A DNA stretch of 41,630 nucleotides from Myxococcota bacterium (GTDB lineage Bacteria > Myxococcota > XYA12-FULL-58-9 > JALHOP01). The stretch covers positions 1 to 41,630 of the forward strand of contig JBGGMJ010000150.1 in the NCBI GenBank assembly GCA_041288095.1. The letters are read 5' to 3'. The translations under genes and the position numbers were made by a program. Position 1 is the first letter of the stretch. Every line of letters begins with the position of its first letter. The notes under the pieces are model-generated. The model worked only from the letters and a program-made list of their open reading frames with translations, ran no database searches and was not told the DNA's origin. Below are positions 2,974 to 35,682 of this stretch, in pieces.

Positions 2974-3000
2974 GCAACATCATCGCCCATCTGCCGATGC
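2974..3000 (+). promoter_or_regulatory. Putative sigma28/FliA-like promoter
   Basis: GCAA-N15-GCCGATGC versus consensus TAAA-N15-GCCGATAA. A hairpin GGGGCGCTC/GAGCGTTCC follows at the expected transcript 5' end. Confidence 0.5.
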
Positions 3001-3039
3001 CGTTAGGGGCGCTCCTTTCCGAGCGTTCCCACCAACCCC

Positions 3040-4083
3040 ATGTCAGTCATCGAAACGAACGTGCTCCCACGGGCGTCCGTGGGTATTTCGCGTCCCGTCG
3101 CGGACCTCCCGGGCACCGGTGCGCTCAGCGTCGCGCGCCTCGTGACCGGCGATGATGACGGCATCGAGCCGCGTCGACCGCGCACGGTGCCGCGGCCTGC
3201 CCAGTGGGTTGGACCGACCGCTCCCGCGCTCTTGCCCATGATGCCCCGGGTGGCGAGCGCCTTCGCGCAGAGCCGCGAGACCCTCGAAGCGCTCAAGCGC
3301 GACCCGGCGAGCGAAGAGCGCTACTGGCGCGCCATCGGTGAGATCGCCGCCGACATTCGCGCCAAGCGCGACGATCGGGTCCCCTACGTGCGGGAAATTC
3401 TCGAGGGCCTGCGCGATCCCGAGTCCCACGACGGTCGTGGTGAGATCGCCGGCGACGTCTACCAGCGCATCGAGCCGGCAACGGCCGCCACTCCCGAGGG
3501 CGATCGTGAAGGCCGCCTCACCGACGAGGAGAAGCGGCTTCTAGGCGCTCGGCCGGCCGAGCTCCCGCCGGCGGCGGTGCCCAGCGTTGGGGGCCCGACC
3601 TGGTCGCGGTCGCTCGCGTCGTTCAACAACGTACGCATCGACGTCGAGCTGCCGCGCGGCGCTTCTGATTACATGGGCTACAAGCCTTTCCGCTACGGCA
3701 CGGCCCGGACCATCGAGACGCTCAAGCGGATTGCCCAACGCCACCGCGAGCAGAGCGGCCTCATGCTGCGCGTGGGCGACATCGCCAAGCAAGGCGGCGG
3801 ACGGATCCCGGATCACTCGTCGCACCGCGACGGGAAGATCTTCGACCTCGACTTGGCCTTCAACGATGGCCGCGTCACCGCCGAGCCCGACCGCGATAGC
3901 GTCAACGCGACGTGGCGCAGCCCCGCCTACGACCGCGCCGCCACGCGTAAGCTCATCAAGATCATCAAGGCGATCCGGCCAGAGGCGCAGATCCTGTTCA
4001 ATGATCCGGTCCTGGTCAGCGAGGGTCTGGTCCGCTCATTTCCGAATCACGACAACCATATGCACGTGCAGCGGCTGAGCTGA
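3040..4083 (+). CDS. MepA-like (penicillin-insensitive murein endopeptidase/LAS) domain protein with a long N-terminal extension and no signal peptide
   Basis: The C-terminal domain has YGT, RVGDIA..GGG, HSSHRDG..FD and HDNHMHV Zn-binding motifs. Confidence 0.75.
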   Translation: MSVIETNVLPRASVGISRPVADLPGTGALSVARLVTGDDDGIEPRRPRTVPRPAQWVGPTAPALLPMMPRVASAFAQSRETLEALKRDPASEERYWRAIGEIAADIRAKRDDRVPYVREILEGLRDPESHDGRGEIAGDVYQRIEPATAATPEGDREGRLTDEEKRLLGARPAELPPAAVPSVGGPTWSRSLASFNNVRIDVELPRGASDYMGYKPFRYGTARTIETLKRIAQRHREQSGLMLRVGDIAKQGGGRIPDHSSHRDGKIFDLDLAFNDGRVTAEPDRDSVNATWRSPAYDRAATRKLIKIIKAIRPEAQILFNDPVLVSEGLVRSFPNHDNHMHVQRLS

Positions 4084-4088
4084 GTCTT

Positions 4089-4156
4089 CGATAAGTTTCG
4101 CTTATCGCAACGATTGACCCTAATCATTTTACTTTATTGCTGGCGGAGCCTAGTTC
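4089..4156 (+). promoter_or_regulatory. LysR-type T-N11-A palindrome plus a putative sigma70 promoter of pvcA
   Basis: CGATAAG-N5-CTTATCG (4089-4107), an AT-rich spacer, then TTTACT-N17-TAGTTC (4128-4156). Confidence 0.6.
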
Positions 4157-4209
4157 AGGCGCTGCCTGAGGATGCCACCACGCCCCAGGCGAATGACCTG
4201 GAGCCGCCG

Positions 4210-5214
4210 ATGTACACCGATTTCTCCGCTGCGACCGTCGAGACCCACAGCACGCTTTTCGCCGCTCCCAAGCGCTCCGCTCGAGCGGTCGCCTTGGAGA
4301 TCCTGGGCCTCGTCCTGCCGCACCGCCGCATCGCCGCGGAGAGCGAGCCTTGCGAGCTGGGCTTGTGCGAGAAGTGCGCTGGTCCGCACTTGAGTCGCGT
4401 CATCGCCTCGGTGGAGCTCGGCGAGCCGGTCGTGTTCGTTCTGCCGGCGTTTCCTGGCAAGTCGCCGAACCCGTCGAAGGTCTTGAGCGCGCGGGCGGAC
4501 ATGGCCGAACGGCAGTCGCTCGCTTTCTTGAACGAGCTCTGCCGCCGTGTGCAAGCGGTGTACGCGCCTGGCGCGCGCATGGTGCTTTGCTCCGATGGTC
4601 GCGTCTTCAGTGACGTCGTTGGCATCGACGAGAGCGACATCACCACCTACCAGCGCGACCTCTCGGCCCTGATCGCCGACCTCGGCGCGACCGCGCTCTC
4701 GACCTTCAACCTCGACGACGTCTTCACTGATTGCTCGTTCGATGCCATGCGCGCCCGCCTCATGGCGAGCCACGGTCAACCGCTCGAGGCCCTGCAAGCC
4801 GCTGTCCGCGAAGGCGGTGAGCCCAAGCGCATGTACTGCGGCATCACGCGCTTCCTCTTCGAGGACGGTTTGCGACCGGACATGACGATGAGCAAGACCG
4901 CGCTGCAGAAGGATTGCCGCCGGCGCGCCTACGAAGTGGTTCAGCGCAGCAAGGCCTGGGACGGGCTCCTCGCGACCTGCTTTCCGGACGCGGTGCGTCT
5001 GTCGATTCACCCCCAGGTGTGCGGCAGCCGCAAGCTGGGCATCCATCTCATGGAGACGATGGACGGCTGGCTCACCCCGTGGCACGGCGTCGCGGTCGAG
5101 GTCGATGGCAGCTTCGTGCTAAGGAAGCGCCGCGAAGTCGAAGAGGCGGGCGCGACGCTCGTCTTCGCCAACGGAAGGCCAAGCCACTACGTCATGCAAG
5201 GTGCCGCGTCATGA
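4210..5214 (+). CDS. pvcA: Isonitrile (isocyanide) synthase, PvcA/Dit1/IsnA family
   Basis: FVLPAFPGKSPN..KV, CSDGRVFSD, RSKAW, VRLSIHPQ..S.KLGI and TPWHG motifs. GGAG precedes ATG 4210. Confidence 0.93.
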   Translation: MYTDFSAATVETHSTLFAAPKRSARAVALEILGLVLPHRRIAAESEPCELGLCEKCAGPHLSRVIASVELGEPVVFVLPAFPGKSPNPSKVLSARADMAERQSLAFLNELCRRVQAVYAPGARMVLCSDGRVFSDVVGIDESDITTYQRDLSALIADLGATALSTFNLDDVFTDCSFDAMRARLMASHGQPLEALQAAVREGGEPKRMYCGITRFLFEDGLRPDMTMSKTALQKDCRRRAYEVVQRSKAWDGLLATCFPDAVRLSIHPQVCGSRKLGIHLMETMDGWLTPWHGVAVEVDGSFVLRKRREVEEAGATLVFANGRPSHYVMQGAAS

Positions 5215-6038
5215 TTCTCAGCGACCTCAATCCGTTTGGTGTGCTGGTCGAGCCGTCCGCGGCCACGAATGTCCTCGATTTGCCCATTGAGAGGCTCCGT
5301 GCCCTGGCTCGCGAGCATCATCTGCTCGTCCTGCGGGGCTTCACCACCTTCGGTACCGCCGACGCTTTCGCGGACTACTGCGGCCGCTGGGGCGAGGTGA
5401 GCCTGTGGCCGTTCGGCAAAGTGCTCGAGCTGGTCGAGCAGGAGACGCCGGAGGATCACATCTTCGACAACAACTACGTGCCGCTCCACTGGGATGGCAT
5501 GTATCGCGAGCAGGTCCCCGAGTTTCAGATGTTCCACTGCGTCAGCGCGCCGGCGGGCAACCAGGGCGGCCGCACCACCTTTTCGAACACCGTCAGCGCG
5601 CTCGAGCGAGCCGCGCCCCGCGCTCGTGCCCTCTGGGACAAGGTGACCGGCGTCTATCGCCGCAAGATGGAGTACTACGACAGCAAGACCATCGCGCCGG
5701 TGGTAACAGAGCATCCCGCGCGCGGCTTCTCCGTCATTCGTTATAACGAGCCACCCGTCGAGGGTGACGAGACCTTCGTCAACCACCCGACGCTCGCCTT
5801 CGAGGGTGTCGCCGAGACCGAAGCGCGCGAGTTTCACCGAGGCCTGCGCGAGGCGCTCTACGCGCCGGAGAGCTTCTACGCCCATTCCTGGCAAACGGGT
5901 GACATCGTCGTCTCGGACAACTATACGCTGTTGCATGGCCGCGAGGCTTTCACGCCGGGCGCGCCACGGCACCTGCGGCGGGTGCACGTCCTCGGCGATC
6001 CGCCGCTCGCCAATCCGCATCTGGTCGCCCAAGGATGA
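5211..6038 (+). CDS. pvcB: Fe(II)/2-oxoglutarate dioxygenase, TauD/PvcB family
   Basis: HWD...H facial triad (PLHWDGMY; DNYTLLHGRE) and GGRTTF. ATGA overlap with pvcA. Confidence 0.9.
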   Translation: MILSDLNPFGVLVEPSAATNVLDLPIERLRALAREHHLLVLRGFTTFGTADAFADYCGRWGEVSLWPFGKVLELVEQETPEDHIFDNNYVPLHWDGMYREQVPEFQMFHCVSAPAGNQGGRTTFSNTVSALERAAPRARALWDKVTGVYRRKMEYYDSKTIAPVVTEHPARGFSVIRYNEPPVEGDETFVNHPTLAFEGVAETEAREFHRGLREALYAPESFYAHSWQTGDIVVSDNYTLLHGREAFTPGAPRHLRRVHVLGDPPLANPHLVAQG

Positions 6039-7471
6039 GGACGCTGGAGACCGACGTCGTCATCGTCGGCGCCGGGCCGGTAGGTCTACTCTGCGCCTAC
6101 CTGGGACGACTCCGGGGCTTACAGACGGTCATCGTCGATAAGTCGTCGGCGCCCCTCCAAGTCGGACGCGCGGACGCACTGAACGCCCGCACCTTGCAGC
6201 TGCTCGAGGTCGTCGACCTGTTCGCGGAGCTCCATCCCTTGGGTAAGCCCTGCAACACCAGCTCCGTTTGGGCGGACGGCAAGTTCGTCTCGCGCCAGTC
6301 GTCGTGGTGGGACGCGCTGCAAGGCTGCTTTCACAAGCACTTTCTCATGCTCGGGCAGTCATTCGTGGAACAGCTCCTCGATACGAAGCTCACGGAGCAG
6401 GGCGCGGCGGTCCGCCGCGAAACCTCGGTCGCCAATATCGAAGTCACAGACGACGGTTGTCTCACGACGCTGTCGACGGGTGAGACGCTGAAGAGCAAGT
6501 TCGTGATCGGCGCCGACGGCTCGCGCTCCTTCGTGCGCGAGCTCTTCGAGGTCGGGTTCGAGGTCACGCGGCCTCAAATCATCTGGGCGGTGGTGGACGG
6601 AGTCATCGCCACCGACTTCGCGAAGGTGCCGGAGATCATCGTCTTCCAGGCCGATACTTCCGACGTCGCCTGGATACCGCGTGAAGGAAACATCGACCGC
6701 TTCTACATCCGGATGGACACCAAGGACTTCACGTTCGAAGAGGTGCTGGCGAAGATCAATCGGGCCATGCAGCCGCACACGCTGCGCTTCGAGGAAGTCA
6801 CCTGGTTCTCGCACTTCTCGGTGAAGGAATCCGTGGCCGAGCGTTACTCGGTGCGGGACCGCGTCTTCTTGGCCGGTGACGCCTGCCACATCCACTCGGT
6901 GAACGGCGGACAGGGCCTGAACACGGGCTTAGCCGACGCGTTCAATCTCATGTGGAAGCTCGACATGGTGCTCGAGCACGGCGCCCCCGTCGAGCTCGCG
7001 CGCAGCTATGAAGAAGAGCGCAAGCCGGTCGCCATGAGCGTCATCGCCACGTCGGGTGAGCTTACGCGCTCGACCAAGTACTCCAAGGAGGGCACCCACG
7101 CCGAAGACTACGTGAAGATCGTCGAGCGGCGCGCCGGCAACATCACGGGCATGGGTATCCGCTATGGCGAGCATCCGCTGCACGGCCAGCGCTTGCTCGA
7201 CTTCGCGGTCGGCGACGAGCGCATCTACTCGCGGCTCGACTACCGCTGCTTCACCTTGCTCGTGTTCGGCGACGCCAAGCCTACCTTCGACCCGCCGGCG
7301 TTCGTGAAGGTGATGACGATCCGCGACGCGAAGAGCTGCCCTTACGCCGACCAAGTGCTGCTCGTGCGCCCCGATTCTTACATCGCGGCGTCGTCTTCGC
7401 TCACCGACATGGCGCCGATCGCGGCTTACCTCGCCGGGGTCGCTTCGTCCCGCGCCCGCACGTCGAAGTAA
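6035..7471 (+). CDS. FAD-dependent aromatic monooxygenase (PheA/TfdB-like)
   Basis: GAGPVG, GADGSRS, LAGDACHIHSVNGGQGLNTG and LVRPD motifs. ATGA overlap with pvcB. Confidence 0.9.
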   Translation: MRTLETDVVIVGAGPVGLLCAYLGRLRGLQTVIVDKSSAPLQVGRADALNARTLQLLEVVDLFAELHPLGKPCNTSSVWADGKFVSRQSSWWDALQGCFHKHFLMLGQSFVEQLLDTKLTEQGAAVRRETSVANIEVTDDGCLTTLSTGETLKSKFVIGADGSRSFVRELFEVGFEVTRPQIIWAVVDGVIATDFAKVPEIIVFQADTSDVAWIPREGNIDRFYIRMDTKDFTFEEVLAKINRAMQPHTLRFEEVTWFSHFSVKESVAERYSVRDRVFLAGDACHIHSVNGGQGLNTGLADAFNLMWKLDMVLEHGAPVELARSYEEERKPVAMSVIATSGELTRSTKYSKEGTHAEDYVKIVERRAGNITGMGIRYGEHPLHGQRLLDFAVGDERIYSRLDYRCFTLLVFGDAKPTFDPPAFVKVMTIRDAKSCPYADQVLLVRPDSYIAASSSLTDMAPIAAYLAGVASSRARTSK

Positions 7472-9183
7472 CCCGTCATGCGGTGGTTCGGGTGGTCCGT
7501 CGAGTGACGGCCGATGTGGCAATGGAACATCCAGCGCCCGGGGTTCGAGTGATCGACGAGGATCTCGACGGTCTGTCCCGGCGCGACCATCGTGGTGTCC
7601 TTCCACTGCAGGTTGGGATTGCGCTCGCCATTCACCGAAAGGACGAGGAAGCGCTGCCCGTGGAAGTGAATCGGGTGCTGCATCGGGCCACCACGTAGCT
7701 GAATGCGCGAGACGTCGCCCTGGTTGAACTGCCAGCGGATGTCTTCGTTGGCCCTGCCGGTGTCGAGATCGACGAGGCGCCAGATGGTGTTGTCGACGTT
7801 CGAGCGCTGATTCATCGGGGGAGCAAGCTCCTCCCACATGATGCCGTCCGTGCGCTGCCATAGCGGACGGCCGGTGGGCATCGGCGTGTTCGGGTCACGC
7901 GGCGCCGGCTCGCGCGGCCCCTGGCGCCGGCCATTCATCTCGAGCTCGACGCCCAGGCGAAGATCGGCGGGCCGGTCGAAGTGTCGGCGGAACTGGTCGA
8001 TGTCGGCGCGCACTTCCGCGTTTTCGCGCAGACGCTCGAAGGCTTCGCGATGACTCTGTTCGACCGGCTCGGCCGCTACGTTGACGCGACCCAGGACGTT
8101 CGTCGCTCCAGCGGGAGTGCGGCTGACGATCTGATGCTCGCCGGGCGTGTCGAAGAGCGCCTCGATGGTGTAGCGCTCGGCGGGCGCGATCATGACGCTG
8201 TCGGAGAACTCCTCGCGCTCGTTCCTGCCGATGTCCGAGCCGACGACCTTGATGCGCGCGCCGGGGATCGAGAGATTGAAGACGCGCGTGTCGGCGGCGT
8301 TGAGGACGTGAAAGCGGACGACCTCGCCACGGCGCACGTTGAGCGCATAGTCGGTACGGCCGTTCACGAGCATGGTATCGCCGTGCATGCCGCCCCAGAC
8401 GTGCGTCGCCGGCGAGCGACCGCCATCGCGGGCCGATGGATCGCGCACCGCGATGTCGTCGAGCGCGAGCACCTCTTCGCGATTCGCGGGATTGTAGTAG
8501 TTCGGGTCGGTCGGCTGGACGACGAAGACGCCGTAGGCGCCCTGGTCACGGACCGCCCAATCGCGGATGTGTGGGTGGTACCAGTAGACGCCGGCGTCGG
8601 GGAACGTGAGGCGGTAGTTGAAATCGCCGCCCGGCGGTACCGGATCCTGGCCGAGGCCGGGGACACCGTCGAAGCGCCAATCGAGACGCAGGCCATGCGG
8701 GTGCAGCGTCGTCTCCGCATCGGTGCGGTTGCGCAGGAGGATGTCGACGCTCGAGCCTTGCGGCACGCGCAGCACCGGCCCTGGGATCGAGCCGCCATAG
8801 GAGATGCCCGAGATCTCTTGTCCGGCGACTTGACGTCGTACGCGGTGCATATCGAGGGTCAAGCTGCCGCCGTTGGCGAGATCGATGGCGCGCATCGGCT
8901 CGACTTCGGGGACCGGGCCCTCCGCGACCGGGCCGGTCGGTGGCTCGCCGTGGTGCGGGCCATGGGCATGATGTCCGTGGCCCACGCCGTGTGGGCCTGC
9001 TGGTGGCAGCTGCACCGGCGTCGGGATGGGCGGTCGCACTGCACGGTGTGGCGTGCCCGGGTCCATACGGTCGACAGCCGCGGGCTCGTGCCCCGCGTGC
9101 TCGTCCGTCGTAGCGGTCACGCCCTGGCGCACGGGCGCGACGCGGACAATTGCGGCATCGACCGGCGCGATTGGATTGGTCAT
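7426..9183 (-). CDS. Three-domain multicopper oxidase with His/Pro-rich N-terminal extension and no Tat/Sec signal
   Basis: Copper motifs HPHG, WYHPH, HPIHFHG and HCHIGRH...M. Confidence 0.92.
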   Translation of the reverse strand: MTNPIAPVDAAIVRVAPVRQGVTATTDEHAGHEPAAVDRMDPGTPHRAVRPPIPTPVQLPPAGPHGVGHGHHAHGPHHGEPPTGPVAEGPVPEVEPMRAIDLANGGSLTLDMHRVRRQVAGQEISGISYGGSIPGPVLRVPQGSSVDILLRNRTDAETTLHPHGLRLDWRFDGVPGLGQDPVPPGGDFNYRLTFPDAGVYWYHPHIRDWAVRDQGAYGVFVVQPTDPNYYNPANREEVLALDDIAVRDPSARDGGRSPATHVWGGMHGDTMLVNGRTDYALNVRRGEVVRFHVLNAADTRVFNLSIPGARIKVVGSDIGRNEREEFSDSVMIAPAERYTIEALFDTPGEHQIVSRTPAGATNVLGRVNVAAEPVEQSHREAFERLRENAEVRADIDQFRRHFDRPADLRLGVELEMNGRRQGPREPAPRDPNTPMPTGRPLWQRTDGIMWEELAPPMNQRSNVDNTIWRLVDLDTGRANEDIRWQFNQGDVSRIQLRGGPMQHPIHFHGQRFLVLSVNGERNPNLQWKDTTMVAPGQTVEILVDHSNPGRWMFHCHIGRHSTDHPNHRMTGYFDVRARDEATPAR

Positions 9184-9193
9184 GGGTGTCTGC

Positions 9194-9976
9194 TCAGTAT
9201 GGCGCTCGTGACAACATACGATAGCCGTCTTCGGTGACGACGAGAATATCTTCCACGCGCACTCCGAAGCCCTCGCGCGATAGATAGACGCCCGGCTCGA
9301 CCGTGATCACGTCACCCACCTTCAATTTCGCGGGGTTACCCTGCGAGATGGTGGGGGCCTCGTGCACCTTGCGGCCGACGCCGTGGCCGACTGCGTGGGG
9401 AATCGAGAAGCCCTTGCCGCGCAGGAAGTCGCGCGATGCCTTGTCGACATCGCCGGCGGTGGCGCCCGGACGGACCTTGGCAAGGCCGAGCTTCTGGGCC
9501 TCGTGGACGAGGTTCCAGATTTCGCGTTGGCGGGCGGTAGGCTCGCCAACGAAGAAGGTGCGGGTCACGTCGCTGCACCACGGGCCGCCTTCGCCTTCGT
9601 AGCGGGCGCCGATGTCGACCATGATGATGTCGTTCTGTTCGAGCCGGCGGTCGGACGGAACGCCGTGGATATCGACTGTCCCCTTGCCGAAGACCGAGAT
9701 GGTGGGGAACGACAGCCCCATGCGGTTGGCCTTGAAGTGATTCTCGATGATGGCCGCCGCTTCCTTCTCGGTCATACCTGGCCGCAGCGCCGCTTTGAGG
9801 GCCGCGAACGCACCGTCGGTCACCTTGGTGGCCTGCTCGATACAAGCCAAACGCTCCGCCGTATGGACTGACGGCGCCGAAATGGGCTCCCGGGAGCCGG
9901 CGAGGGCAGGGCCATTTTGCGCCGCGATCGACGCTGCGGTGACGGCGCGGGCTCCCTCAGGGCGAATAAGCTGCAT
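9194..9976 (-). CDS. M24 family Xaa-Pro peptidase (catalytic domain only)
   Basis: IHG, VDIGA, SDVTRT, HAVGHGVG..VHE, TVEPG and GVRVED motifs. The creatinase-like N domain is absent. Confidence 0.88.
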   Translation of the reverse strand: MQLIRPEGARAVTAASIAAQNGPALAGSREPISAPSVHTAERLACIEQATKVTDGAFAALKAALRPGMTEKEAAAIIENHFKANRMGLSFPTISVFGKGTVDIHGVPSDRRLEQNDIIMVDIGARYEGEGGPWCSDVTRTFFVGEPTARQREIWNLVHEAQKLGLAKVRPGATAGDVDKASRDFLRGKGFSIPHAVGHGVGRKVHEAPTISQGNPAKLKVGDVITVEPGVYLSREGFGVRVEDILVVTEDGYRMLSRAPY

Positions 9977-10027
9977 GGGGCGTGCTTCCAGTTGGTCGAC
10001 CGATCGACCGGTTTTGGGGCCTCCGAA

Positions 10028-10054
10028 GTATCGAAGGGCACGCCCCGTGGTTGC
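10028..10054 (-). promoter_or_regulatory. Putative sigma28/FliA-like promoter
   Basis: Minus strand GCAA-N15-TTCGATAC, with the same -35 and spacing as the element at 2974. Confidence 0.45.
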
Positions 10055-10314
10055 TAACGCCCGCTAATCTTTGCCCGGCGCCAGGATGCGCCATTACGTC
10101 GTTCGTCGACCAGCGCCCGTCCGTGGAGACGGGCGAGGCGTGGGAGATCGTCGTAGGTTGCGCGGCTGACCAGTATCTCGACCGCGCCGAAATCGACCGC
10201 GAAATAGGCATGCGGGGTCGGTTCGAGTGGGACCTCCGGCTCGGGACCACCGTCGCCCTCGTACCGGTGGATGGTCGCTGCCCAACGGGTCACGTCCGGA
10301 AGCTCGTCCCACAT
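10054..10314 (-). CDS. Small hypothetical protein (86 aa)
   Basis: Strong SD (AAGGAG) 7 nt before the ATG; fills the intergenic gap. Confidence 0.6.
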   Translation of the reverse strand: MWDELPDVTRWAATIHRYEGDGGPEPEVPLEPTPHAYFAVDFGAVEILVSRATYDDLPRLARLHGRALVDERRNGASWRRAKISGR

Positions 10315-10429
10315 GCGGTACTCCTTCCTGTGATCCTAGGGAGCAGCGCCGCGGTTCGCCATGCAAATGAGGCGTAACCATGACGTGTCGCGATCAAATG
10401 CGATCTTGCAGCGGTGGTAAGCTCGGGAC

Positions 10430-11668
10430 ATGACTCCAATCACGGCGCTCATCCTCGCCGCCGCCTTCAGCGCTTCCCGCACCGATGTCACCTCCGAGGA
10501 GGGACGCAAGCTGACGCTCCTCGACTACGTGCAGTCGCGCTCCGATCTCCCGGACGCCGACAAGCAAGTCTGGGATACGGCGCTGCGCCAGGTGTTCGGC
10601 GGTAAGGCCATCAAGGACGGCAGTGACGAGGGCGTCACCGTCGCCAAGTCCGTCGTAGCGGCCAGCATCTTCTTCGGCATCGAGCCGGTGAAGGCGGCTC
10701 GCGCGGCGTACGATGCCTATCACGACACCTACCGCTGGGTACCGCCGCCGATCGCCATCAACTATCAGCTCATGAAGCTGCAAGGGCGCGCCCCCAAGGC
10801 GCAGCCGCGCGAGCTCGCCTACAACTTTCCGCGCCACTTCGATCCCGAGATCGCGCCGGAGATCGTCTTCTGGTGGGAGGAGATGCTCGGGCGCGGGGCG
10901 ATCGCCAAAGCGGACATCGCTCGCATCACGGCGTCCCTCGAGAAGACGCGCGAGCTGATGCGGCCGCTGCTGCTCGAGCGCTTGTGGCAGGGGGTCGAGC
11001 TGGAAGCACGCGAGCAGACCAGCGCCGTGCGGGAGGAGCTTACGACTCTCGGACGCGAGCTTGCGCGCGGTTACGCCAACGTTGGTCGCCTGCGCCAAGG
11101 GACCTACTACGAACGCTACCTCGCGCTGGCGACCGAGCTGGGGCAGAAGGCCCGTGCCCGACCCGAGCCGCAGCAGCCCCGGCGCGTCGAAGCTCCGCCA
11201 AAGCAGCCACCTCGCGACGCGCAGCACGCACCGAAACGAGAGAAGGCGCCGCCCCCCATCGCAGGCGACGAGCTGGTCGTGGCCGAGCCCGGCTTCGCGG
11301 GGAGCTTGCGCAAGGCCGCGGGCGGTTGGTTGGGCACTCCGTATCTGTTCGGGGGCACGGATCGTCGCGGCATCGACTGCTCTGCATTCTCACGCGCCAT
11401 CTACGACGAGACGACCGCCATCGACCTGCCGCGCAACAGCCGGGCCCAGTTCTCACTTGGCGCCGGCGTCGACAAGGCCCGCCTCGCGCCGGGTGACCTC
11501 GTGTTTTTCGATACCTTCGACCGCGGTACCGTCACCCACGTTGGCGTTTACGTGGGCAGCGGTGAGTTCGCGCATGCAAGCTCGAGTCGCGGTGTCGTCA
11601 TCGACACTCTCGGATCCGCCTATTACGAGCGGGCATGGTGGGGAGGAAAGCGTCTGCTATCCCAATGA
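10430..11668 (+). CDS. Secreted NlpC/P60 (C40) peptidoglycan hydrolase with an unknown helical N-terminal domain
   Basis: Hydrophobic N-terminal signal. C-terminal GTPYLFGG, GIDCS, LPRNSRAQ, PGDLVFF, HVGVY and HASSS. Confidence 0.9.
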   Translation: MTPITALILAAAFSASRTDVTSEEGRKLTLLDYVQSRSDLPDADKQVWDTALRQVFGGKAIKDGSDEGVTVAKSVVAASIFFGIEPVKAARAAYDAYHDTYRWVPPPIAINYQLMKLQGRAPKAQPRELAYNFPRHFDPEIAPEIVFWWEEMLGRGAIAKADIARITASLEKTRELMRPLLLERLWQGVELEAREQTSAVREELTTLGRELARGYANVGRLRQGTYYERYLALATELGQKARARPEPQQPRRVEAPPKQPPRDAQHAPKREKAPPPIAGDELVVAEPGFAGSLRKAAGGWLGTPYLFGGTDRRGIDCSAFSRAIYDETTAIDLPRNSRAQFSLGAGVDKARLAPGDLVFFDTFDRGTVTHVGVYVGSGEFAHASSSRGVVIDTLGSAYYERAWWGGKRLLSQ

Positions 11669-11721
11669 CTTCGTGGCGCCGTTGTGGCCGGGAGGCGCGT
11701 TCTGTCGAGGCCAAAAGCCGC

Positions 11722-11860
11722 ACCTACATGTAGGTCTGGATGTCTCGATGTCAGTCCCCAACAGGGGCTCAGACCCGCTTTACGACAACGGTTTTTAGAC
11801 TCGCGTGCTAGTCTAAAAGGAGTCGTTATTGGAGCCCTCTGGGGCTCGCCTGCGAAGGAA
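11722..11860 (+). promoter_or_regulatory. Structured leader/promoter region upstream of the 11869 gene
   Basis: Palindrome ACCTACATGTAGGT (11722-11735), TACA-N15-CTCGATGT, and a long imperfect hairpin (about 11756-11845) with core TTTTAGACT/AGTCTAAAA. Confidence 0.5.
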
Positions 11861-11868
11861 TCAGAGAG

Positions 11869-12876
11869 ATGAACTCCACAGTCACGCGTCGAGTCGCCGG
11901 TGTCGTTCTGGGCGAAGCGTTGGAAGTCGGCACGGCTCGCGCCGGCCGTGAAGCCGCCATGCAGGCAGCGCCGCGCGCCGCGGCAACATTCGAGCGCGGT
12001 GGCCTCCGTGGTGCAACCGGCGCACCTGGCGCACCTGGGGTCCCTGGCGCGCTTCCGTCCGCCATCACCAACCCCATGAACGTCATCGGCTATAGCACAC
12101 CAGCCCGAGCCGCCATGAGCGCCGAGCACCGGGTCGCCAGCGAAGCCGTGGAGAACCTGACGACGCGCTTGGGCCGCGCCAGCGCCGCTGATCGACCCTG
12201 GCTCCAGGGGCAGCTCGACACCGCGACGCAGACGCTGCGGGTACACGAGACGCGCGCCGCGGTCGAGCACATGACCCACGTCATCCGCCACACGCCGGCC
12301 GCGCAACCCGAGCGCGTGATTCGCAGTCTCTACCAGAGGCTGGCGCAGGGTCAGGCTCAACACGCCGACGCGCTCACCAGGGCTGGCGCGAGCGAAGCCG
12401 ATATCATCGCCGCGCACCACGCAGCCGGACATTCGTTTGCCCGCGCCGCGCGCACCGACTTGCAAAGTGTTGGCCGCGCGTGGACCGAAGATATGGGCTC
12501 GGCACTGCGTCACTTCGCGGCGGCTGGCGATCATCGATCGGTGAGCGAGATGTTCCGCCGCGCCGATGCGGGGCAGACCGAAGCGGCGCTGGGCTTGCTG
12601 CGACGCACGACCGACAGGAGCATGCCCTATTGGGAGCGCACCAACATGGAGCGCACCGCTCGTGGAATGATCGATGACATGTTTAGCCAGCCGTACAGCG
12701 TTCAAGGCGCTCTACGCGCGGACGGTACGAGAGAACCAACGCGTCTGCTGGCCGCGCGCGTCCCGCTGACCGATGCCGAGCTCGCTAGCGTGGCGCGGCG
12801 GGCGCAAAGCAGCGATCTCGCTGCTGACGCGGCGACGTGGGTCCAGCAAACGCTACGCCTGGCGGCGACCCGTTAA
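11869..12876 (+). CDS. Hypothetical Ala-rich helical protein (335 aa)
   Basis: Long ORF with AAGGA upstream and a low-complexity N-terminus containing a short G-X-Y run. No recognised motif. Confidence 0.75.
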   Translation: MNSTVTRRVAGVVLGEALEVGTARAGREAAMQAAPRAAATFERGGLRGATGAPGAPGVPGALPSAITNPMNVIGYSTPARAAMSAEHRVASEAVENLTTRLGRASAADRPWLQGQLDTATQTLRVHETRAAVEHMTHVIRHTPAAQPERVIRSLYQRLAQGQAQHADALTRAGASEADIIAAHHAAGHSFARAARTDLQSVGRAWTEDMGSALRHFAAAGDHRSVSEMFRRADAGQTEAALGLLRRTTDRSMPYWERTNMERTARGMIDDMFSQPYSVQGALRADGTREPTRLLAARVPLTDAELASVARRAQSSDLAADAATWVQQTLRLAATR

Positions 12877-22240: not shown

Positions 22241-22248
22241 CGCGACGC

Positions 22249-23676
22249 TCAGGCCTCCAGTGCCGTGACCACGTCACCCAAGAGGATGCCGCGGTCGGTA
22301 ATGAGCAGCTCGCGCAGTGTCGAGTCGTGGCCGCTGTCGCGCATCTTCAGCACCGACAGGACGCGGCAAATGCGTCCACGCATACGCGCGTGTCGCAGCA
22401 CGATCATGTTGTGCGTGATCGCGGACACACCTCGGAATGGCACCCGCATCGTCGGGCCGACGAGGTCAGCGCTCTCGGCGCTGTACAGGATGGTCACGCC
22501 GCGCCGCTCCAGCTCGTTGGCGAGAGCCGTCATGACCTCACGGACCCGATCATCGATGTCGACCGCGGTCGCCAGGCCGTCGAGGCCGTCCATGAACAGG
22601 CGCTTTGGCTCGTGGCGTTCGACCTCGTTCAACAACCGGTCGCAGACCACGTCGACGATGCCTTCGACCGGCCGCTGCCAGAGCTGATGCACGAGACCGC
22701 GCTCCACGCCCTCGACGAGGCCGACGCAGACACGCTTGCTCTTGGCGAGAATCGCCGGTGGTCGTTCGAAGAAGCCGAAATAGATGCCGGTCTCGTCGAG
22801 GCGCGCGCCTTCGGCGAGCCACTGCAGGCCGAGCATGGTCTTGCCGCTGCCTGTCGGTCCCAAGAGCATCGTCGCCGAGGCGTTCGGCACACCACCCTCC
22901 ATCATCTTGTCGAGGTCCGCGATGCCGAACCCGAGCCGCTCCACGGACGGCACGTACTCATCGTCGCTCGCCGGCTTCACTCGGGTCTCGATGCGCGGGT
23001 GCACGGCGATGCCGGCATCGCTGATGTCGAAGCTATGCCGCCCGCTCACCTGCGCGGCGCCTCGCAGCTTGCGCACGTGCAGGTAGCGCCGCGAGTGCAC
23101 GTTCTGGATCTCGTTCGATAGCTCGATGATGCCGTCGACCATCGTGTGGTCGGGCCGGAAGCCATTCGCGCGCTCGGCGTTCGAGAGGAGGAGGGCGGTC
23201 CCGCCCATCAACGCGAGGACGACTTGCAGCTCGTGCAGGAACTTCTTGTAGTCCTTCAGCGACGGCGCCGCGTCTTCGGCGGACACGAGCCCATCCAGCA
23301 CGAGAAGGCCTGCTTTGTGAGAGGTCGCGGATTGCCGGACCACGTCGAGCAGTCCGCTCAAGCCGTCTTCCTCGAGCGGCCGGAAACCGCTCAGGTAGTA
23401 GAGGTTCTTCGGAATGACCGAGCTGTCGTAGAAACGCATGCGCCGCAGGTGCTGCAACATGCGAGCATGCGACTCGGCGAGCAGCGTGACGTAAACGACC
23501 TGCCCACCTGCCTTGGCGAACTCGAAGGCGATCTGATTGGCGAGGACCGTCTTACCGGCGCCAGGCACTCCCTGGACGATGTACACGCCACCGACGAGCA
23601 GCCCGCCTTCGAGCAAGCGGTCGAGGCCTGGTACACGCGTCGCTAAGCGCTCCGGTATGGTCGCTGGTCTCCCCAT
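22249..23676 (-). CDS. KaiC-like double RecA-domain ATPase
   Basis: Two Walker A motifs (GVPGAGKT, GPTGSGKT) and KLRG/KMRDS arginine fingers. Confidence 0.9.
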   Translation of the reverse strand: MGRPATIPERLATRVPGLDRLLEGGLLVGGVYIVQGVPGAGKTVLANQIAFEFAKAGGQVVYVTLLAESHARMLQHLRRMRFYDSSVIPKNLYYLSGFRPLEEDGLSGLLDVVRQSATSHKAGLLVLDGLVSAEDAAPSLKDYKKFLHELQVVLALMGGTALLLSNAERANGFRPDHTMVDGIIELSNEIQNVHSRRYLHVRKLRGAAQVSGRHSFDISDAGIAVHPRIETRVKPASDDEYVPSVERLGFGIADLDKMMEGGVPNASATMLLGPTGSGKTMLGLQWLAEGARLDETGIYFGFFERPPAILAKSKRVCVGLVEGVERGLVHQLWQRPVEGIVDVVCDRLLNEVERHEPKRLFMDGLDGLATAVDIDDRVREVMTALANELERRGVTILYSAESADLVGPTMRVPFRGVSAITHNMIVLRHARMRGRICRVLSVLKMRDSGHDSTLRELLITDRGILLGDVVTALEA

Positions 23677-23730
23677 CCATGAATCAAGATGGGGTCCTGG
23701 AGGCACGAATCAACCCTTGACGGAGGGGCT

Positions 23731-32325: not shown

Positions 32326-32492
32326 AGCCTCCTGCGTCGCCTGGTGGTGGCTCCACGCCCCACTCAACTGCGCGGAACAAAAAGCGAAAAACCGCGAAAA
32401 CAATACCCTTGCCTCGCGACGTTCTTTTCGTCATGTCGCACCCACCGCAACAGACCCGATTGGTTTACGGATTGCTTCGGCACGCTTTCGTC

Positions 32493-34016
32493 ATGTCCCT
32501 ACGTCTCATTCCCTTGGTTTTGGCCTCGTGCTTCGCCGCCGCGGCTCCGGTTCAAGCCGGCTCGCGCGCCATCGGCGGCAACGGCAAACAGTTCAGCTTC
32601 GATTGGCTCAAGAACCAAGCCAAGCAGCTCGCCAAGAAGGACTACGAGAGCCCCGGCGTCGAGCTGCCGGACTCGCTGCAGAACCTCACCTACGATCAGT
32701 TCCGCGACATTCGTTTCCGCCATGAACAGGCGGTCTGGAAGAAGGAAGGGCTGCCGTTCCAGGTGCAGTTCTTCCACATGGGCTTCTTCTACAAGGAGCC
32801 GGTGTTCGTGCACGTGGTCACTGGTGGGCGCACCCAGAACATCGACTTCTCGACCTCGATGTTCGACTACGGTCACAATTCGCTAGGCGATTTGCCGCGC
32901 GATCTCGGCTTTGCCGGCTTCCGCATCCACTACCGTCTCAACAAACCTGAATACATGGACGAGCTCGTCGTCTTCCTTGGGGCGAGCTACTTCCGCGCCC
33001 TCGGGAAAGGCCAGCTCTATGGTCTGTCGGCACGCGGTCTCGCGCTCGATACGGCCCTCCCGTCCGGCGAAGAGTTTCCGTCCTTCCGCGAGTTCTGGAT
33101 CGAAAAGCCCGGCCCACAAACCAAGGAGCTCATCATCCACGCGCTCTTGGACAGCCGCAGCTACGTGGGTGCGTATAGGTTCATCATCCGACCGGGCAAC
33201 GCGACGGCCATGGAAGTGACTGCTACACTCTACGCTCGTCGCAACGTCGAGAAGATCGGCGTGGCGCCGCTCACCAGTATGTACCTTTTTGGTGAAAACG
33301 ATCACGCGGGCTTCGACGACTTCCGGCCGGAGGTGCACGACTCCGACGGCCTCTTCGTGTGGACGGGCCAGGGCGAGCAGATCTGGCGGCCGCTCGTGAA
33401 CCCGCAGCGCCTGCGCGTGTCCGCTTTCTCGGTCGAAGACCCGCGCGGCTTCGGTCTCTTGCAGCGCGACCGCATGTTCACGAGCTACGAAGACCTCGAG
33501 TCACGCTACGAGAAGCGGCCGAGCGTATGGGTCGAGCCGTTGCAGAAGTGGGGCCGCGGCCAGGTGCAGCTCGTCGAGATCCCGGCGACCGAAGAGTACC
33601 ACGACAACATCGTCGCCTTCTGGACGCCCGACAAAGTCCCGGCGCCGGGCGAGCCCATGGCGCTCTCTTATCGCTTGTGGTGGGGCGACGGCCCGCCGGA
33701 CTGGCAGTCGGGACAGCACACCGTGGCCACCCGCATCGCCGCGGGCAGCGAGCCCGGCAATCGCCGCTTCGTGCTCGACTTCTTGCCCAGTGCCGCTAAA
33801 GCGGACGAGGCCGTGGTTGCCAACGCTGAACCGGTAATCAGCGTTTCCAGCGGGCAGGTGATTCGCCCGATCGCCCAGCGCAACGAAGTCACCGGCGGCT
33901 GGCGTGCGTTCTTCGAGTTCAAGCCGGCGAGCGACGAGCCCGTCGAGATGCGAGCGTATTTGCGTAGCGGTGAGAAGAGCCTCACCGAGACCTGGAGTTA
34001 TTTGTGGAGCCCATGA
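32493..34016 (+). CDS. opgG: Periplasmic glucan biosynthesis protein OpgG/OpgD
   Basis: Signal peptide, YDQFRDIRF, FLGASYFRA, YGLSARGLA, EEFP.F, RPEVHDSDGL and ETWSYLW. Confidence 0.93.
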   Translation: MSLRLIPLVLASCFAAAAPVQAGSRAIGGNGKQFSFDWLKNQAKQLAKKDYESPGVELPDSLQNLTYDQFRDIRFRHEQAVWKKEGLPFQVQFFHMGFFYKEPVFVHVVTGGRTQNIDFSTSMFDYGHNSLGDLPRDLGFAGFRIHYRLNKPEYMDELVVFLGASYFRALGKGQLYGLSARGLALDTALPSGEEFPSFREFWIEKPGPQTKELIIHALLDSRSYVGAYRFIIRPGNATAMEVTATLYARRNVEKIGVAPLTSMYLFGENDHAGFDDFRPEVHDSDGLFVWTGQGEQIWRPLVNPQRLRVSAFSVEDPRGFGLLQRDRMFTSYEDLESRYEKRPSVWVEPLQKWGRGQVQLVEIPATEEYHDNIVAFWTPDKVPAPGEPMALSYRLWWGDGPPDWQSGQHTVATRIAAGSEPGNRRFVLDFLPSAAKADEAVVANAEPVISVSSGQVIRPIAQRNEVTGGWRAFFEFKPASDEPVEMRAYLRSGEKSLTETWSYLWSP

Positions 34017-34414
34017 GTCGGTTGGCGGCATTTTTCCGGTCCTTTGGGTTCGACGTCGAAGCCTGCATGGCCTTGGCCTCGCGTTTCGAGAGCGCCGATG
34101 ATCCGGTGCGTCGCGCGCAAGACGCCGCGACCGCTTGGCTCGTGAAGGCGACCGGGCCATGGGCGGGCGACTCGCCGGCGGGCTTTGCCGCGGCGCGCCT
34201 CGCGTTCGTGCGCGCCGATATCGCCAAGCGTTTCCCCGAGGCCTTCCTCGCCGACGAAGCTCCGGCCGCGGTGCGCGAGGCCTTCGCGGGTCATCGCCCG
34301 TTGGCGCTGCCGGCGCTGGTTCCGAGCCAGATGGTGCCGCAGGACGTGCGCATGTTGCCAGTCATCGACGACGTCTTGCGCTCGGTGTTGCCGCTGGCAC
34401 CGCGCCGCTCCTAG
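34013..34414 (+). CDS. Hypothetical protein coupled to opgG
   Basis: ATGA overlap with opgG. Contains P.L.PSQMVPQ near its C-terminus. Confidence 0.7.
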   Translation: MSRLAAFFRSFGFDVEACMALASRFESADDPVRRAQDAATAWLVKATGPWAGDSPAGFAAARLAFVRADIAKRFPEAFLADEAPAAVREAFAGHRPLALPALVPSQMVPQDVRMLPVIDDVLRSVLPLAPRRS

Positions 34415-34417
34415 CCG

Positions 34418-35248
34418 GTGCTGATTCCGGTCCAGTCGCCGTACGATTGGCCGTCCATCCTGGCATTCTTCACGCTGCGGGCGATTCCCGGCGTCGAGTG
34501 CGCTTCAGCGGACAGATACGAACGTAGCATCGTGATGAACGGCGAGGTCGGGAGGCTGGCCGTGGGACCCGCCACCGGCGGTCTCGAGGTGACCTCGAGC
34601 CTCCCCGGTGTGATCGACCGGGTGAGCCGCATGTTCGATACGGAGCACGACCCGGCGCGTCTCGCCAAGCACTTCGCGAACGACGAGGTCATGCTCCCGT
34701 TGGTGACAGAGCGGCCGGGCCTGCGCATCCCCAACGCCTGGGACGGCTTCGAGCTCGCGGTTCGCGCCGTACTCGGCCAGCAGATCACGGTCATTCAGGC
34801 GGCGAAGCTCGCGGGCAAGCTGGTCACCCGCTATGGCAGACGCATCGCCGACACCGGGCTCGTCACGCACCTGTTTCCGGAGCCCGCGGCCCTCATCGAC
34901 CAGGACATCGCCGCGTTGGGCATGCCGGGGAGCCGCGGTGAGACCATTCGTAATGTGGCCCGGGCGGCGCTCGCGGACCCCACCATCTTTGCTCCCGGTG
35001 GTACCGCCGAGCGTTTACGCGGCATGCGTGGCATTGGCGACTGGACGGCTCAGTACATCGCCATGCGCGCCCTGGGTGATCGTGACGCCTTTCCCGCTTC
35101 CGACGTCGGGCTGCTCCGCGCCATGGCCGGCAAGGATAGGGTGCGGCCAACCCCGAAGGCGCTCCTCGCTCGCGCCGAGCTCTGGCGTCCATACCGGGCC
35201 TACGCGGCGCAGCACCTGTGGGCGGCCGATGCGGTCACCATGGGATGA
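34418..35248 (+). CDS. alkA: DNA-3-methyladenine glycosylase II (no Ada domain)
   Basis: PYDW...RAIPGVE, FELAVRAVLGQQI, HhH RGIGDWTA, FPASD and WRPYRAYA. Confidence 0.92.
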   Translation: MLIPVQSPYDWPSILAFFTLRAIPGVECASADRYERSIVMNGEVGRLAVGPATGGLEVTSSLPGVIDRVSRMFDTEHDPARLAKHFANDEVMLPLVTERPGLRIPNAWDGFELAVRAVLGQQITVIQAAKLAGKLVTRYGRRIADTGLVTHLFPEPAALIDQDIAALGMPGSRGETIRNVARAALADPTIFAPGGTAERLRGMRGIGDWTAQYIAMRALGDRDAFPASDVGLLRAMAGKDRVRPTPKALLARAELWRPYRAYAAQHLWAADAVTMG

Positions 35249-35340
35249 CATCCTTTCACTGCGTTGGTTGGCCAAGCCTGCCGATACACCCGCCACAACA
35301 AACTGGGCGTGGTGTGGCCGCGTCTTTGATGGAGAGCAAA

Positions 35341-35682
35341 ATGTCGGGAGAACGAGTCGGTTCGAAGGGTGCAAAGACGGTCGGCTGGGAGAACGAAGGG
35401 GTCGTCGAGCGCGGCAACGACAAGCGTGTACGTGACAGCTTCGCCCAGGCGAAGGCGAGCGGGGCCGTGAAGCTCACGCCGCTGCAGCCGCACCAGGTGA
35501 CGGCGCTCAAGGCCGAGATGAACAGCGGCAGCAGGACGCACGGTGATCGCAGCGTCGACTTGGGTAACGGCGAACAGCTCATCCAGCGCAACGGCAAGGT
35601 CTATCTGCGCGCCGGCGAGCAATACAGCAGCGTCAGCGGCTATTCGTTTCCGCCGCTGCCCATGGCACAGGTCCGCTTCTAG
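35341..35682 (+). CDS. Small hypothetical protein (113 aa)
   Basis: SD GGAGAG before ATG 35341. Upstream GCCGATAC at 35280-35287. Confidence 0.65.
   Translation: MSGERVGSKGAKTVGWENEGVVERGNDKRVRDSFAQAKASGAVKLTPLQPHQVTALKAEMNSGSRTHGDRSVDLGNGEQLIQRNGKVYLRAGEQYSSVSGYSFPPLPMAQVRF

Follow-up and report, generated by a model that had tools for sequence, protein, structure and literature searches.

The extracytoplasmic function (ECF) sigma factor HrpL is tied to a system for type III secretion (T3SS), acting on one box found before both the T3SS operons and dispersed effector genes, and this hrp box has served as a genome-wide handle for finding effectors. In the flagellar checkpoint, FlgM, with its disordered N-terminus, holds the sigma factor FliA through C-terminal helices, while FliA drives the expression of late type III substrates. 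The HrpL/hrp-promoter regulon is known from Pseudomonas syringae (PMC4149516; partial text), and in Bdellovibrio bacteriovorus the FliA consensus TTAAG-N16-CCGATA was found in 92 of 140 mapped attack-phase promoters (PMC3627812; partial text). Myxococcus xanthus requires a needleless T3SS* to lyse its prey, and reviews as well as recent primary work describe the effectors of this system as unknown; the two texts on it name no sigma factor, the word "sigma" occurring in neither (PMC10433427, PMC12075869). Here, we describe a promoter class of an uncultured Myxococcota bacterium, starting from a 41,630-nt stretch of its DNA (contig JBGGMJ010000150.1 of assembly GCA_041288095.1; the window). An earlier note on this stretch had proposed that four sigma-28-like sites control a dispersed arsenal of signal-less, effector-like proteins exported through a type III route, possibly for predation. 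Two of the four sites belong to a genome-wide class of GCAAC/CCGATA promoters, which are probably read by a FliA-family sigma factor encoded close to T3SS genes and called sigma-C92 below.

The window is an entire contig (C150) of a 5.85-Mb assembly (G000, the genome under study; 212 contigs, 66% G+C, 90% complete), which was compared to three congeners (G001, G002 and G003), a same-order genome (G005; 97% complete) and a 9-Mb genome from another family (G029). Genes were called with our own codon-usage script (5000 genes, 93% of G000 coding). The sequencing runs holding the window DNA were soil metagenomes only, with no RNA sequencing among the listed runs. In the literature on myxobacteria or Myxococcota with T3SS, FliA or sigma factors, no such sigma factor or motif was described, subscription journals lying mostly outside the coverage.

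The pattern underlying the earlier note, scanned as [GT][CA][AC]A-N15-N[CT]CGAT, matched eight times in the window, five of them within genes; because it had been derived from window sites, the window could not be used as its test. Across 2788 oriented upstream regions (375 kb, window contig excluded), the pattern gave 105 oriented and 52 antisense matches at spacer 15 and 68 oriented and 38 antisense matches at spacer 16, and the remaining ten spacers in the 10-21 range gave 18-33 oriented matches each. A position weight matrix (PWM) was refined on 447 sites outside the window, of which 294 had 14 nt and 149 had 15 nt between GCAAC and gCCGATA, and the refined class consensus reads cGCAAC-N14/15-gCCGATA(A/C). 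Over these sites, the CCGAT core showed C in 437, G in 443 and A in 446 cases, followed by T in 343, A in 373 and A or C in 376, and was preceded by C in 280 and, one base earlier, by G in 259. The motif carries the extended -10 (GCCGATAA) of the sigma-28 (FliA/WhiG) class together with the fixed spacer of about 15 nt typical of sigma-28 promoters (peaks at 15 and 16), but not their TAAA, the first -35 position being G in 92 and T in two of 94 sites. The -10 and the spacing are those of sigma-28 promoters and the -35 differs: of the sigma-28-like promoter proposed in the earlier note, the -10 element and the spacing were confirmed, while the -35 is GCAAC and not TAAA-like.

At a score of at least 18, the PWM found 272 oriented upstream, 22 other intergenic and 33 coding sites across G000, and at a score of at least 16, it found 355, 31 and 134, respectively. 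Distinct transcription units headed by a site numbered 272 (score at least 18), 354 (at least 16) and 423 (at least 14), those of the highest class being spread over 120 of the 212 contigs, and the distance from the end of the -10 to the start codon had a median of 40 nt (interquartile range 26-81). The genome-wide scan thus fits the co-regulation suggested earlier, with a spacer-specific, gene-upstream motif at the head of 272 to 423 dispersed transcription units. Exact matches to GCAAC-N14-15-GCCGATA number 70 in G000, compared to 3 for the reversed-pattern control, and 59-91 in congeners; for GCAAC-N15-16-CCGATA, G000 has 117 (control, 4). A housekeeping promoter was ruled out, as none of the 49 tRNA genes had a site of at least 16 within 250 nt upstream, which assigns the class to an alternative sigma factor. 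A repeat or mobile element was also ruled out, since only the two boxes are conserved between sites, with unrelated spacers and flanks. Among CCGATA sites of G000 without GCAAC, no second class with a TAAA-type -35 was seen. We are nearly certain that the motif marks a real alternative-sigma regulon.

The following sites were evaluated in the window.

2974-2999, plus strand: promoter P1, with -35 GCAAC at 2974-2978, a 14-nt spacer and -10 GCCGATG at 2993-2999
10054-10029, minus strand: promoter P2, with -35 GCAAC at 10054-10050 and -10 TTCGATA at 10035-10029; PWM score 16.7
11723-11751, plus strand: third site of the earlier note, with TACA at 11725 and CTCGATGT at 11744-11751; PWM score below 8, non-member
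34195-34227, plus strand: motif-like site inside the open reading frame (ORF) 34004-34414, about 220 nt 5' of an AlkA-like gene; PWM score 16.1, coding-sense
35280-35287, plus strand: fourth site of the earlier note, GCCGATAC, without a GCAAC-like -35, before a 113-aa ORF; PWM score below 8, non-member

All four strings described earlier are present where they had been placed, but they do not form one class: the sites at 2974(+) and 10054(-) are members, while those at 11725 and 35280 score below 8. P1 sits 41 nt 5' of the ATG at 3040 and has a PWM score of 18.4. Both P1 and P2 are kept at orthologous positions of G001, G002 and G003; overall identity of these regions is about 77-81%, with invariant GCAAC and (G/T)(C/T)CGAT(G/A) boxes and diverged 14-nt spacers. 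Judged by sequence, P1 and P2 belong to an alternative-sigma promoter class that spans the lineage. A perfect palindrome of 12 bp, CCTACATGTAGG (11723-11734), overlaps the site at 11725 and is, like CTCGATGTCAG, conserved in G002; the region 11723-11751 may serve as an operator or as a promoter of a different type. An inverted repeat (TTTTAGAC...GTCTAAAA, 11793-11818) lies 5' of the gene at 11869 and is, like the palindrome, largely conserved in G002. The pair of genes at 11869 and 12880 and the ORF at 35341 are outside the control of the motif, and the site at 34195-34227 may be an internal promoter or a chance match. The hairpin that was reported to follow each site was not borne out, as the four leaders had z-scores of -0.6, -1.0, -0.6 and -1.6. 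Leader hairpins were also rejected as a feature of the class (mean z of regulon leaders -0.05 against shuffled sequences; controls, -0.27).

To characterise the regulon, 60 genes drawn at random from the 271 first genes that have a site of at least 18 (window excluded) were compared to 60 random motif-less first genes from 14 random 20-kb stretches. No Pfam family (E <=1e-5) was assigned to 41 of the 60 regulon genes vs 16 of the 60 controls (Fisher p = 8.7e-6). The 19 genes with a family include C11, S8 and M64 peptidases, a serpin fusion, an SLT transglycosylase, Kelch/PD40, a metallophosphatase and an alpha/beta hydrolase, as well as an amine oxidase, an FNR-like reductase, two SCP2 proteins, DUF218, an AAA_2 ATPase, a glutamate-synthase-like protein and UvrC; flagellar genes were absent from the 60, in contrast to a late flagellar/chemotaxis regulon. 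In the enzymes of secreted type (S8, C11, M64, SLT, serpin and a LAS-type peptidase), polar N-terminal extensions stand in place of signal peptides.

Sec-like N-termini, as scored by a heuristic, were strongly depleted, with 11 of 254 regulon vs 468 of 2265 control first genes (p = 1.4e-12), and the depletion persisted when any alternative start in the first 60 codons was allowed (18/254 vs 633/2265, p = 1.6e-15). By score bin, the Sec-like share was 20.8% (below 8), 20.6% (8-12) and 20.4% (12-14), compared to 6.0% (14-16), 2.5% (16-18), 3.4% (18-20) and 4.8% (20 and above). The enrichment of signal-less N-termini anticipated by the earlier note is therefore present genome-wide, the Sec-like share falling from about 21% to 2.5-6% once the motif score reaches 14. 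The six window products for which it had reported no Sec or Tat signal indeed all failed the hydrophobicity and twin-arginine heuristic, which passed MdoG and a lipoprotein-like ORF of the window. Third-position G+C of codons 26-60 was 0.83 in the regulon vs 0.84 in the control, showing that the N-terminal extensions are coding sequence.

Substrates of type III systems have polar, Ser/Thr/Pro-rich and Leu-poor N-termini, and the regulon proteins share this composition, along with the heuristic absence of Sec and Tat signals. Among proteins without signal peptide or transmembrane segment, Ser+Thr+Pro made up 23.7% of residues 2-26 in the regulon vs 18.3% in the control (p = 2e-12) and was equal over residues 61-160 (16.6% vs 16.0%). 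The excess of Ser/Thr/Pro/Gln/Asn (33% vs 24%) returned to baseline by about residue 50-60, and Leu was depleted at several N-terminal positions. A positional N-terminal motif was sought and rejected, leaving a compositional bias only. Effectors of P. syringae follow three rules: position 3 or 4 is aliphatic or Pro, the first 12 residues include no acidic one, and Ser makes up at least 10%; all three hold for 6.0% of regulon proteins vs 3.3% of controls, a weak separation.

No sigma factor or T3SS gene is found in the Pfam gene map of the window, as the earlier note had stated. The genome, however, contains both of the components it had called for, namely two FliA/WhiG-like sigma factors and a type III apparatus (SctV, SctN, SctU and SctR,S,T,Q,L,J,O). 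Among 14 matches to the sigma-70 family in G000, these two had FliA_WhiG as best NCBIfam model:

G000:C92:35188-36072, minus strand: sigma-C92, 163.7 bits
G000:C127:21744-22571: sigma-C127, 166.1 bits

The best PDB relatives of both are FliA chains (about 98 bits vs at most 54 bits for other sigma families). In region 4.2, sigma-C92 has a helix (LSKSWTSRLHAR) that does not vary among the 25 aligned family members (50%-86% identity) and is unlike that of FliA chains; the sigma-C127 helix is close to the latter. Sigma-C127 is directly followed by an 80-aa FlgM-family gene (PF04316, 31.3 bits; cut-off 25), the pair lying at G000:C127:21744-22853, away from flagellar or T3SS genes. No site of at least 13 was found upstream of sigma-C127, so that no autoregulation was seen for this factor.

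Sigma-C92 is the last gene of a cassette on one strand, in which a site at C92:38086 (score 18.2) is followed by genes for a 185-aa protein, a 138-aa tetratricopeptide repeat (TPR) protein, a 159-aa protein (p159) and sigma-C92. Around sigma-C92 relatives, 19 of 39 loci had a site of at least 18 on the sigma strand upstream of the sigma gene, compared to an expected total of about 0.35 for the 39 loci at the coding-region rate; the PWM was trained on G000 only, and six of the 39 loci had little upstream DNA. Nearly all of the sites in the 19 loci are immediately followed by a homologue of the 185-aa gene or of the TPR gene. This arrangement extends to G029, whose sigma homologue is 46% identical and whose cassette has a site scoring 22.5 directly upstream. 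Self-targeting of this kind is typical of alternative sigma factors. Mainly because of the self-targeted cassette and the diverged, family-invariant helix that reads the -35, we conclude that the motif is probably read by sigma-C92. In a set of 41 genomes, the 23 with a sigma-C92 orthologue (at least 56% identity) had a median of 15 exact GCAAC-N14-15-GCCGATA motifs (range 0-91) and the 18 without an orthologue a median of 1; reversed-pattern controls gave 0-4. Because of the relatedness of the genomes in this set, no statistical test was applied to the co-occurrence. G005 is the one clear exception to this co-occurrence.

The TPR protein of the cassette matched the NCBIfam models LcrH_SycD (37.4 bits), SctY (26.4 bits) and CdsG (23.2 bits), all below their cut-offs, and a comparison to the PDB returned generic or designed TPR proteins only. 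The gene for p159 directly precedes that of sigma-C92; the protein matched no family in Pfam or NCBIfam, FlgM included, and no FlgM-family neighbour of sigma-C92 was found. Conservation of p159 lies in the C-terminal half, while about 60 residues at the N-terminus are polar and vary more freely. In complex predictions of p159 with residues 60-294 of sigma-C92, the median interaction prediction score from aligned errors (ipSAE) was 0.85, with 0.01 for the best control; of 157 solved complexes, 116 reach this mark, compared to 2 of 215 mismatched pairs, counts that apply roughly because our own alignments were used for the prediction. The runs agreed in at least 38% of contacts and the partner had a predicted local distance difference test value of at least 59. 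Confident contacts were predicted between residues 69-155 of p159 and residues 154-202, 226-233 and 285-293 of the sigma factor (regions 3 and 4). The prediction supports p159 as a putative binder of sigma-C92, and the chances that it acts as its anti-sigma factor appear evenly balanced on this model. Similar to FlgM on FliA (structures 1RP3 and 1SC5), p159 is predicted to sit on sigma regions 3 and 4 and has a polar, poorly conserved N-terminus. Unlike FlgM, it belongs to no family, the export machine would be a non-flagellar T3SS, and its export is purely something we infer.

The sigma-C92 gene lies 17 kb from sctN on the same contig, that is, beside T3SS genes. This contig carries sctT, S, R, a FliO-like gene, sctQ, a FliK-like gene, sctO, sctN, sctL, a FliG_M-like gene and sctJ, and sctU is on contig C41. 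SctV scored 850.8 bits on the hrcV equivalog model (cut-off 692.25) and stayed below the FlhA cut-off. The motif is also found at T3SS genes themselves: a site at C92:24319 (16.3) heads a minus-strand string of a 163-aa ORF - sctJ - ... - sctL - sctN, a site at C31:5803 (18.9) lies upstream of a small ORF followed by sctV, and a site at C41:4230 (22.0) comes after sctU, an ORF of 170 aa and an LcrH/SycD-like TPR gene, which reaches 76.5 bits with TIGR02552 and stays under the cut-off of this model. About 19 kb separate the cassette from sctV in G029. Of the five exact GCAAC-N15-16-CCGATA motifs of this genome (control, 1), three are on the T3SS contig, one at the cassette and one about 2 kb from sctV. 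The simplest reading is that an ancestral sigma factor was specific to the T3SS cluster and that its regulon greatly expanded in this genus. A Kup potassium transporter, a GNAT acetyltransferase and an HD_4-domain gene stand amid sctQ, sctP and sctO on one strand (G000:C92:6713-11340).

Four G000 proteins of 185-402 aa have unrelated N-terminal parts and a shared C-terminal motif, presumably the conserved needle/rod C-terminus:

C92:37386-37943: the 185-aa cassette protein
C46:1720-2649: needle/rod-like C-terminus protein
C10:81060-82268: needle/rod-like C-terminus protein
C196:1-885: needle/rod-like C-terminus protein, at the contig edge

Two of them gave weak PF09392 matches (21.6 and 25.5 bits), and the three with known upstream DNA all carry the motif (18.2, 20.1 and 24.0). 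Such C-termini are of interest for a T3SS described as needleless. Similar to the M. xanthus T3SS*, the system has a sorting platform, an export apparatus, an ATPase, LcrH-like chaperones and no recognisable secretin or needle (PMC10433427, PMC12075869; partial texts). It differs in belonging to another, uncultured lineage, with needle-like C-termini and with congeners that carry a flagellar cluster.

Flagellin, rod protein and FlhA genes were not found in the 90%-complete G000 assembly, from which the flagellar cluster may simply be missing. G001, G002, G003 and G005 each have an apparently single flagellar cluster (G002:C2, G003:C59/C10 and G005:C48); that of G001 (C2:514918-547475, about 33 kb) includes two flagellins, FlgM, rod proteins, a third FliA and FlhA. 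On this basis, flagella and three paralogues of FliA appear to be features of the genus. The one G001 flagellin promoter inspected, CTAAAG-N15-GGCGATGA, has a TAAA-type -35, which fits a flagellar FliA on the canonical box and a paralogue on GCAAC.

The genes of the window around the two member promoters and the two non-member sites are as follows.

2614-2689: tRNA-Gly
3040-4083, plus strand: gene 1 of operon 1, 347 aa, weak and partial match to Peptidase_M74 (LAS-type murein endopeptidase)
4114-5214, plus strand: PvcA-type isonitrile synthase (PF05141, 252.6 bits)
5211-6038, plus strand: TauD/PvcB-like dioxygenase (PF02668, 164 bits)
6035-7471, plus strand: flavin-dependent (FAD) monooxygenase (PF01494, 223.3 bits)
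7426-9183, minus strand: multicopper oxidase (PF07731, PF07732, PF00394)
9194-9976, minus strand: M24 peptidase (PF00557, 214.4 bits)
10054-10314, minus strand: 86-aa ORF, its stop codon overlapped by the P2 -35
10430-11668, plus strand: NlpC/P60 protein (Pfam)
11869-12876, plus strand: 335-aa protein without Pfam family
12880-15147, plus strand: 755-aa protein without Pfam family, with a transmembrane-like C-terminal segment from residue 674
35341-35682, plus strand: 113-aa ORF without Pfam family, followed by a GT2 glycosyltransferase and a polyketide synthase (PKS)

Operon 1 is tightly packed (gene spacing 31, -4 and -4 nt), and in operon 2 the M24 peptidase and the multicopper oxidase genes are 10 nt apart, neither product having a Sec/Tat-like N-terminus. 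The two operons converge, and the whole 3040-9976 arrangement is syntenic in G001 and G002; it is probably one pvcA/pvcB-type isonitrile biosynthetic cluster under a shared sigma factor. In the case of the M24 peptidase and the oxidase, export accounts for the absence of signals no better than a biosynthetic function in the cytoplasm does. The product of 3040-4083 resembles MepA/Peptidase_M74 in that its residues 218-278 match the start of the profile (PF03411, 30.9 bits, profile positions 33-92 of 240). It differs from MepA in the partial nature of this match, in lacking a signal peptide by the heuristic, in an N-terminal extension of 217 aa with a high content of Ser, Thr, Pro and Ala, and in heading a pvcAB operon; neither a full-length profile match nor a periplasmic signal was found. 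Its translation contains His/Asp-rich stretches, which we take to be of the kind found in LAS metallopeptidases, and no PDB match was obtained at E <=0.1.

The earlier label "annexin-like" in the pair at 11869 and 12880 found no support, with no Pfam family and no informative Atlas match; the Atlas search returned weak helical-repeat look-alikes only (template modelling score <0.4). A relation of the 12880 protein to a DUF4781 protein of the T3SS cluster was rejected for lack of meaningful similarity (E = 0.023 over 111 aa). The downstream window genes with Pfam assignments are, in order, a thioredoxin, an S9 peptidase, ROK, GlnA and a Cys/Met pyridoxal-phosphate enzyme, followed by a response regulator with a KaiC-like ATPase, a his operon, MdoG and AlkA. 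The KaiC-like ATPase has a double domain (485 aa) and a stand-alone response-regulator receiver gene directly 3' on the minus strand (21863-23706). Both contig ends enter carrier-protein/PKS genes (540-2528, phosphopantetheine (PP)-binding; 37620-41630, AMP-binding - PP - ketosynthase - acyltransferase), and the contig is probably bounded by repetitive biosynthetic genes.

Overall, we consider it fairly probable that sigma-C92 is a T3SS-linked member of the FliA family that reads the GCAAC/CCGATA promoters of a regulon that has grown. Sigma-C92 would probably drive its own operon through the cassette promoter, and p159 would, according to the complex model, clamp sigma regions 3 and 4 like an anti-sigma factor. 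In the genus, the regulon would comprise about 270-420 units, including at least two T3SS operon heads, needle-like proteins, hydrolases and mostly family-less proteins. The suggestion that many of these products are T3SS cargo is a tentative one that falls somewhat short of an even chance, and the regulon may have a role in predation. A more far-reaching scheme, which we find attractive but doubtful, is that sigma-C92 and p159 form the FliA/FlgM pair of an injectisome: the T3SS would export p159, possibly upon a trigger such as prey contact, and the freed, self-amplifying sigma factor would fire several hundred promoters of its cargo, which might consist of lytic enzymes and effectors. Of the co-regulated arsenal exported for predation in the earlier note, the regulon, a sigma-28-like factor, the link to a T3SS and the lack of Sec signals thus held genome-wide, while export and predation are what we infer from them.

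Several observations weigh against this reading. Neither of the FliA-like proteins reaches the curated FliA_WhiG cut-off (TIGR02479, 189.6 bits), and no site of at least 13 lies directly upstream of sctU or of the DUF4781...sctO-sctP...sctQ-sctRST string. In the genus, the SctC-type secretin (142 bits vs 238) and the needle protein (25.5 bits vs 29.4) remain below their family cut-offs, so that a route through the outer membrane is not evident. Small acidic (class I) chaperone-like neighbours are not enriched (8/254 vs 73/2265), and 65% of the regulon units look monocistronic, which speaks against classical effector loci. The confidence of the p159 model may partly reflect a known fold, since the sigma-28/FlgM complex has already been solved. 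Finally, gene calls and the signal-peptide test came from simple scripts of our own.

An alternative explanation is that the promoter class and its sigma factor are real but that the products stay inside the cell, as part of a stage-specific or stress programme (attack, starvation or secondary metabolism) in which the T3SS is one co-regulated module. We regard this as rather unlikely, although not lightly so. The two member operons of the window form a pvcA/pvcB isonitrile cluster with an FAD monooxygenase, an oxidase and an M24 peptidase, and the three member products in question (LAS/M74-like, M24 and oxidase) may simply be cytoplasmic biosynthetic enzymes; ordinary cytoplasmic types also occur in the sample (UvrC, glutamate-synthase-like, FNR-like, amine oxidase, two SCP2 and the AAA_2 ATPase). 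The lack of enrichment in chaperone-like neighbours and the sub-threshold secretin and needle fit this explanation as well, and Bdellovibrio FliA likewise drives a broad attack-phase programme (PMC3627812; partial text). However, normally extracellular families (S8, C11, M64, SLT, serpin and LAS) without signals but with long polar N-termini, a Ser/Thr/Pro/Gln/Asn bias confined to the first 50 or so residues, and the motif before genes for proteins with needle-like C-termini speak against it, and a mostly family-less make-up (41/60) would not be expected of a purely cytoplasmic regulon.

The motif might instead be read by another FliA paralogue, either sigma-C127 or the flagellar FliA of the congeners, with sigma-C92 merely among the target genes. 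G005 argues for this, as it has 31 exact motifs and a sigma-C127 orthologue (59% identity) and no sigma-C92 orthologue was found in it (best match 31% identical), which also counts against the assignment to sigma-C92. Moreover, the highest motif counts (genus g1 and G005) coincide with sigma-C127, this gene is directly followed by a FlgM-family gene, and the third FliA of the congeners lies in their flagellar cluster. Conversely, G004, G015 and G025 have 21-24 motifs and a sigma-C92 orthologue but no sigma-C127 orthologue, sigma-C127 retains a FliA-like 4.2 helix, the inspected flagellin promoter has TAAAG and not GCAAC, and G000 retains the regulon although its assembly is without flagellar genes. 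As the motif also precedes the sigma-C92 cassette in 19 of 39 loci, with no site of at least 13 before sigma-C127, a paralogue as the reader seems improbable. Still less probable is an ECF-type factor, which we would expect only as a great surprise. ECF promoters generally have an AAC-containing -35 about 16 nt from a CG-containing -10, GCAAC contains this AAC, and G000 has many sigma-70-family genes (14 matches); yet the -10 is the extended CCGATA(A/C) of sigma-28 promoters and not of the CGT type, and no ECF gene was seen to co-occur with the motif or to be autoregulated by it, as the sigma-C92 cassette is. That all four window sites are chance matches to a degenerate pattern is next to impossible in our view. 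Such matches do occur, given eight in the window with five inside genes, and this explanation stands for 11725 and 35280 (both below 8) with regard to this class; it is refuted for 2974 and 10054(-) by their scores (18.4 and 16.7), the genome-wide spacer specificity and the boxes conserved in three congeners.

Compared to the described systems, the regulon read, as we propose, by sigma-C92 resembles that of HrpL in its dedicated, T3SS-linked alternative sigma factor and in a promoter box found at dispersed genes and at some, though not all, T3SS gene strings. HrpL is of the ECF type and uses another box, whereas the G000 factor belongs to the FliA family and would have a regulon several times larger. 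With the Bdellovibrio FliA regulon, a global programme of a bacterial predator, it has in common a CCGATA -10, a spacer of about 16 nt and a reach far beyond the flagellum, with proteases and many uncharacterised proteins (PMC3627812; partial text). Bdellovibrio differs in its TTAAG -35, its flagellar FliA and the flagellum in the regulon (PMC3627812), whereas G000 has a GCAAC -35, a diverged paralogue near a non-flagellar T3SS and Sec-depleted products. Because the -35 differs, the sigma factor is below the FliA cut-off and not of the ECF type, and the regulon is non-flagellar, the system is a full member of none of the Bdellovibrio FliA, HrpL and FliA-FlgM systems.

A box common to some T3SS operons, a sigma/anti-sigma-like cassette and 270-420 dispersed genes for signal-less, mostly uncharacterised proteins provides a sequence-based list of candidate cargo, much as the hrp box did for the effectors of P. 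syringae. The results suggest that the flagellar sigma-28/anti-sigma logic was kept and re-tuned to a new -35 on a non-flagellar type III branch, which bears on the evolution of injectisomes from flagella. As the cassette is found with its own promoter in distant Myxococcota, the same handle could serve in cultured species. If the scheme of an injectisome FliA/FlgM pair is true, the genes behind GCAAC-N15-CCGATA promoters would be the long-sought cargo of the myxobacterial needleless T3SS.

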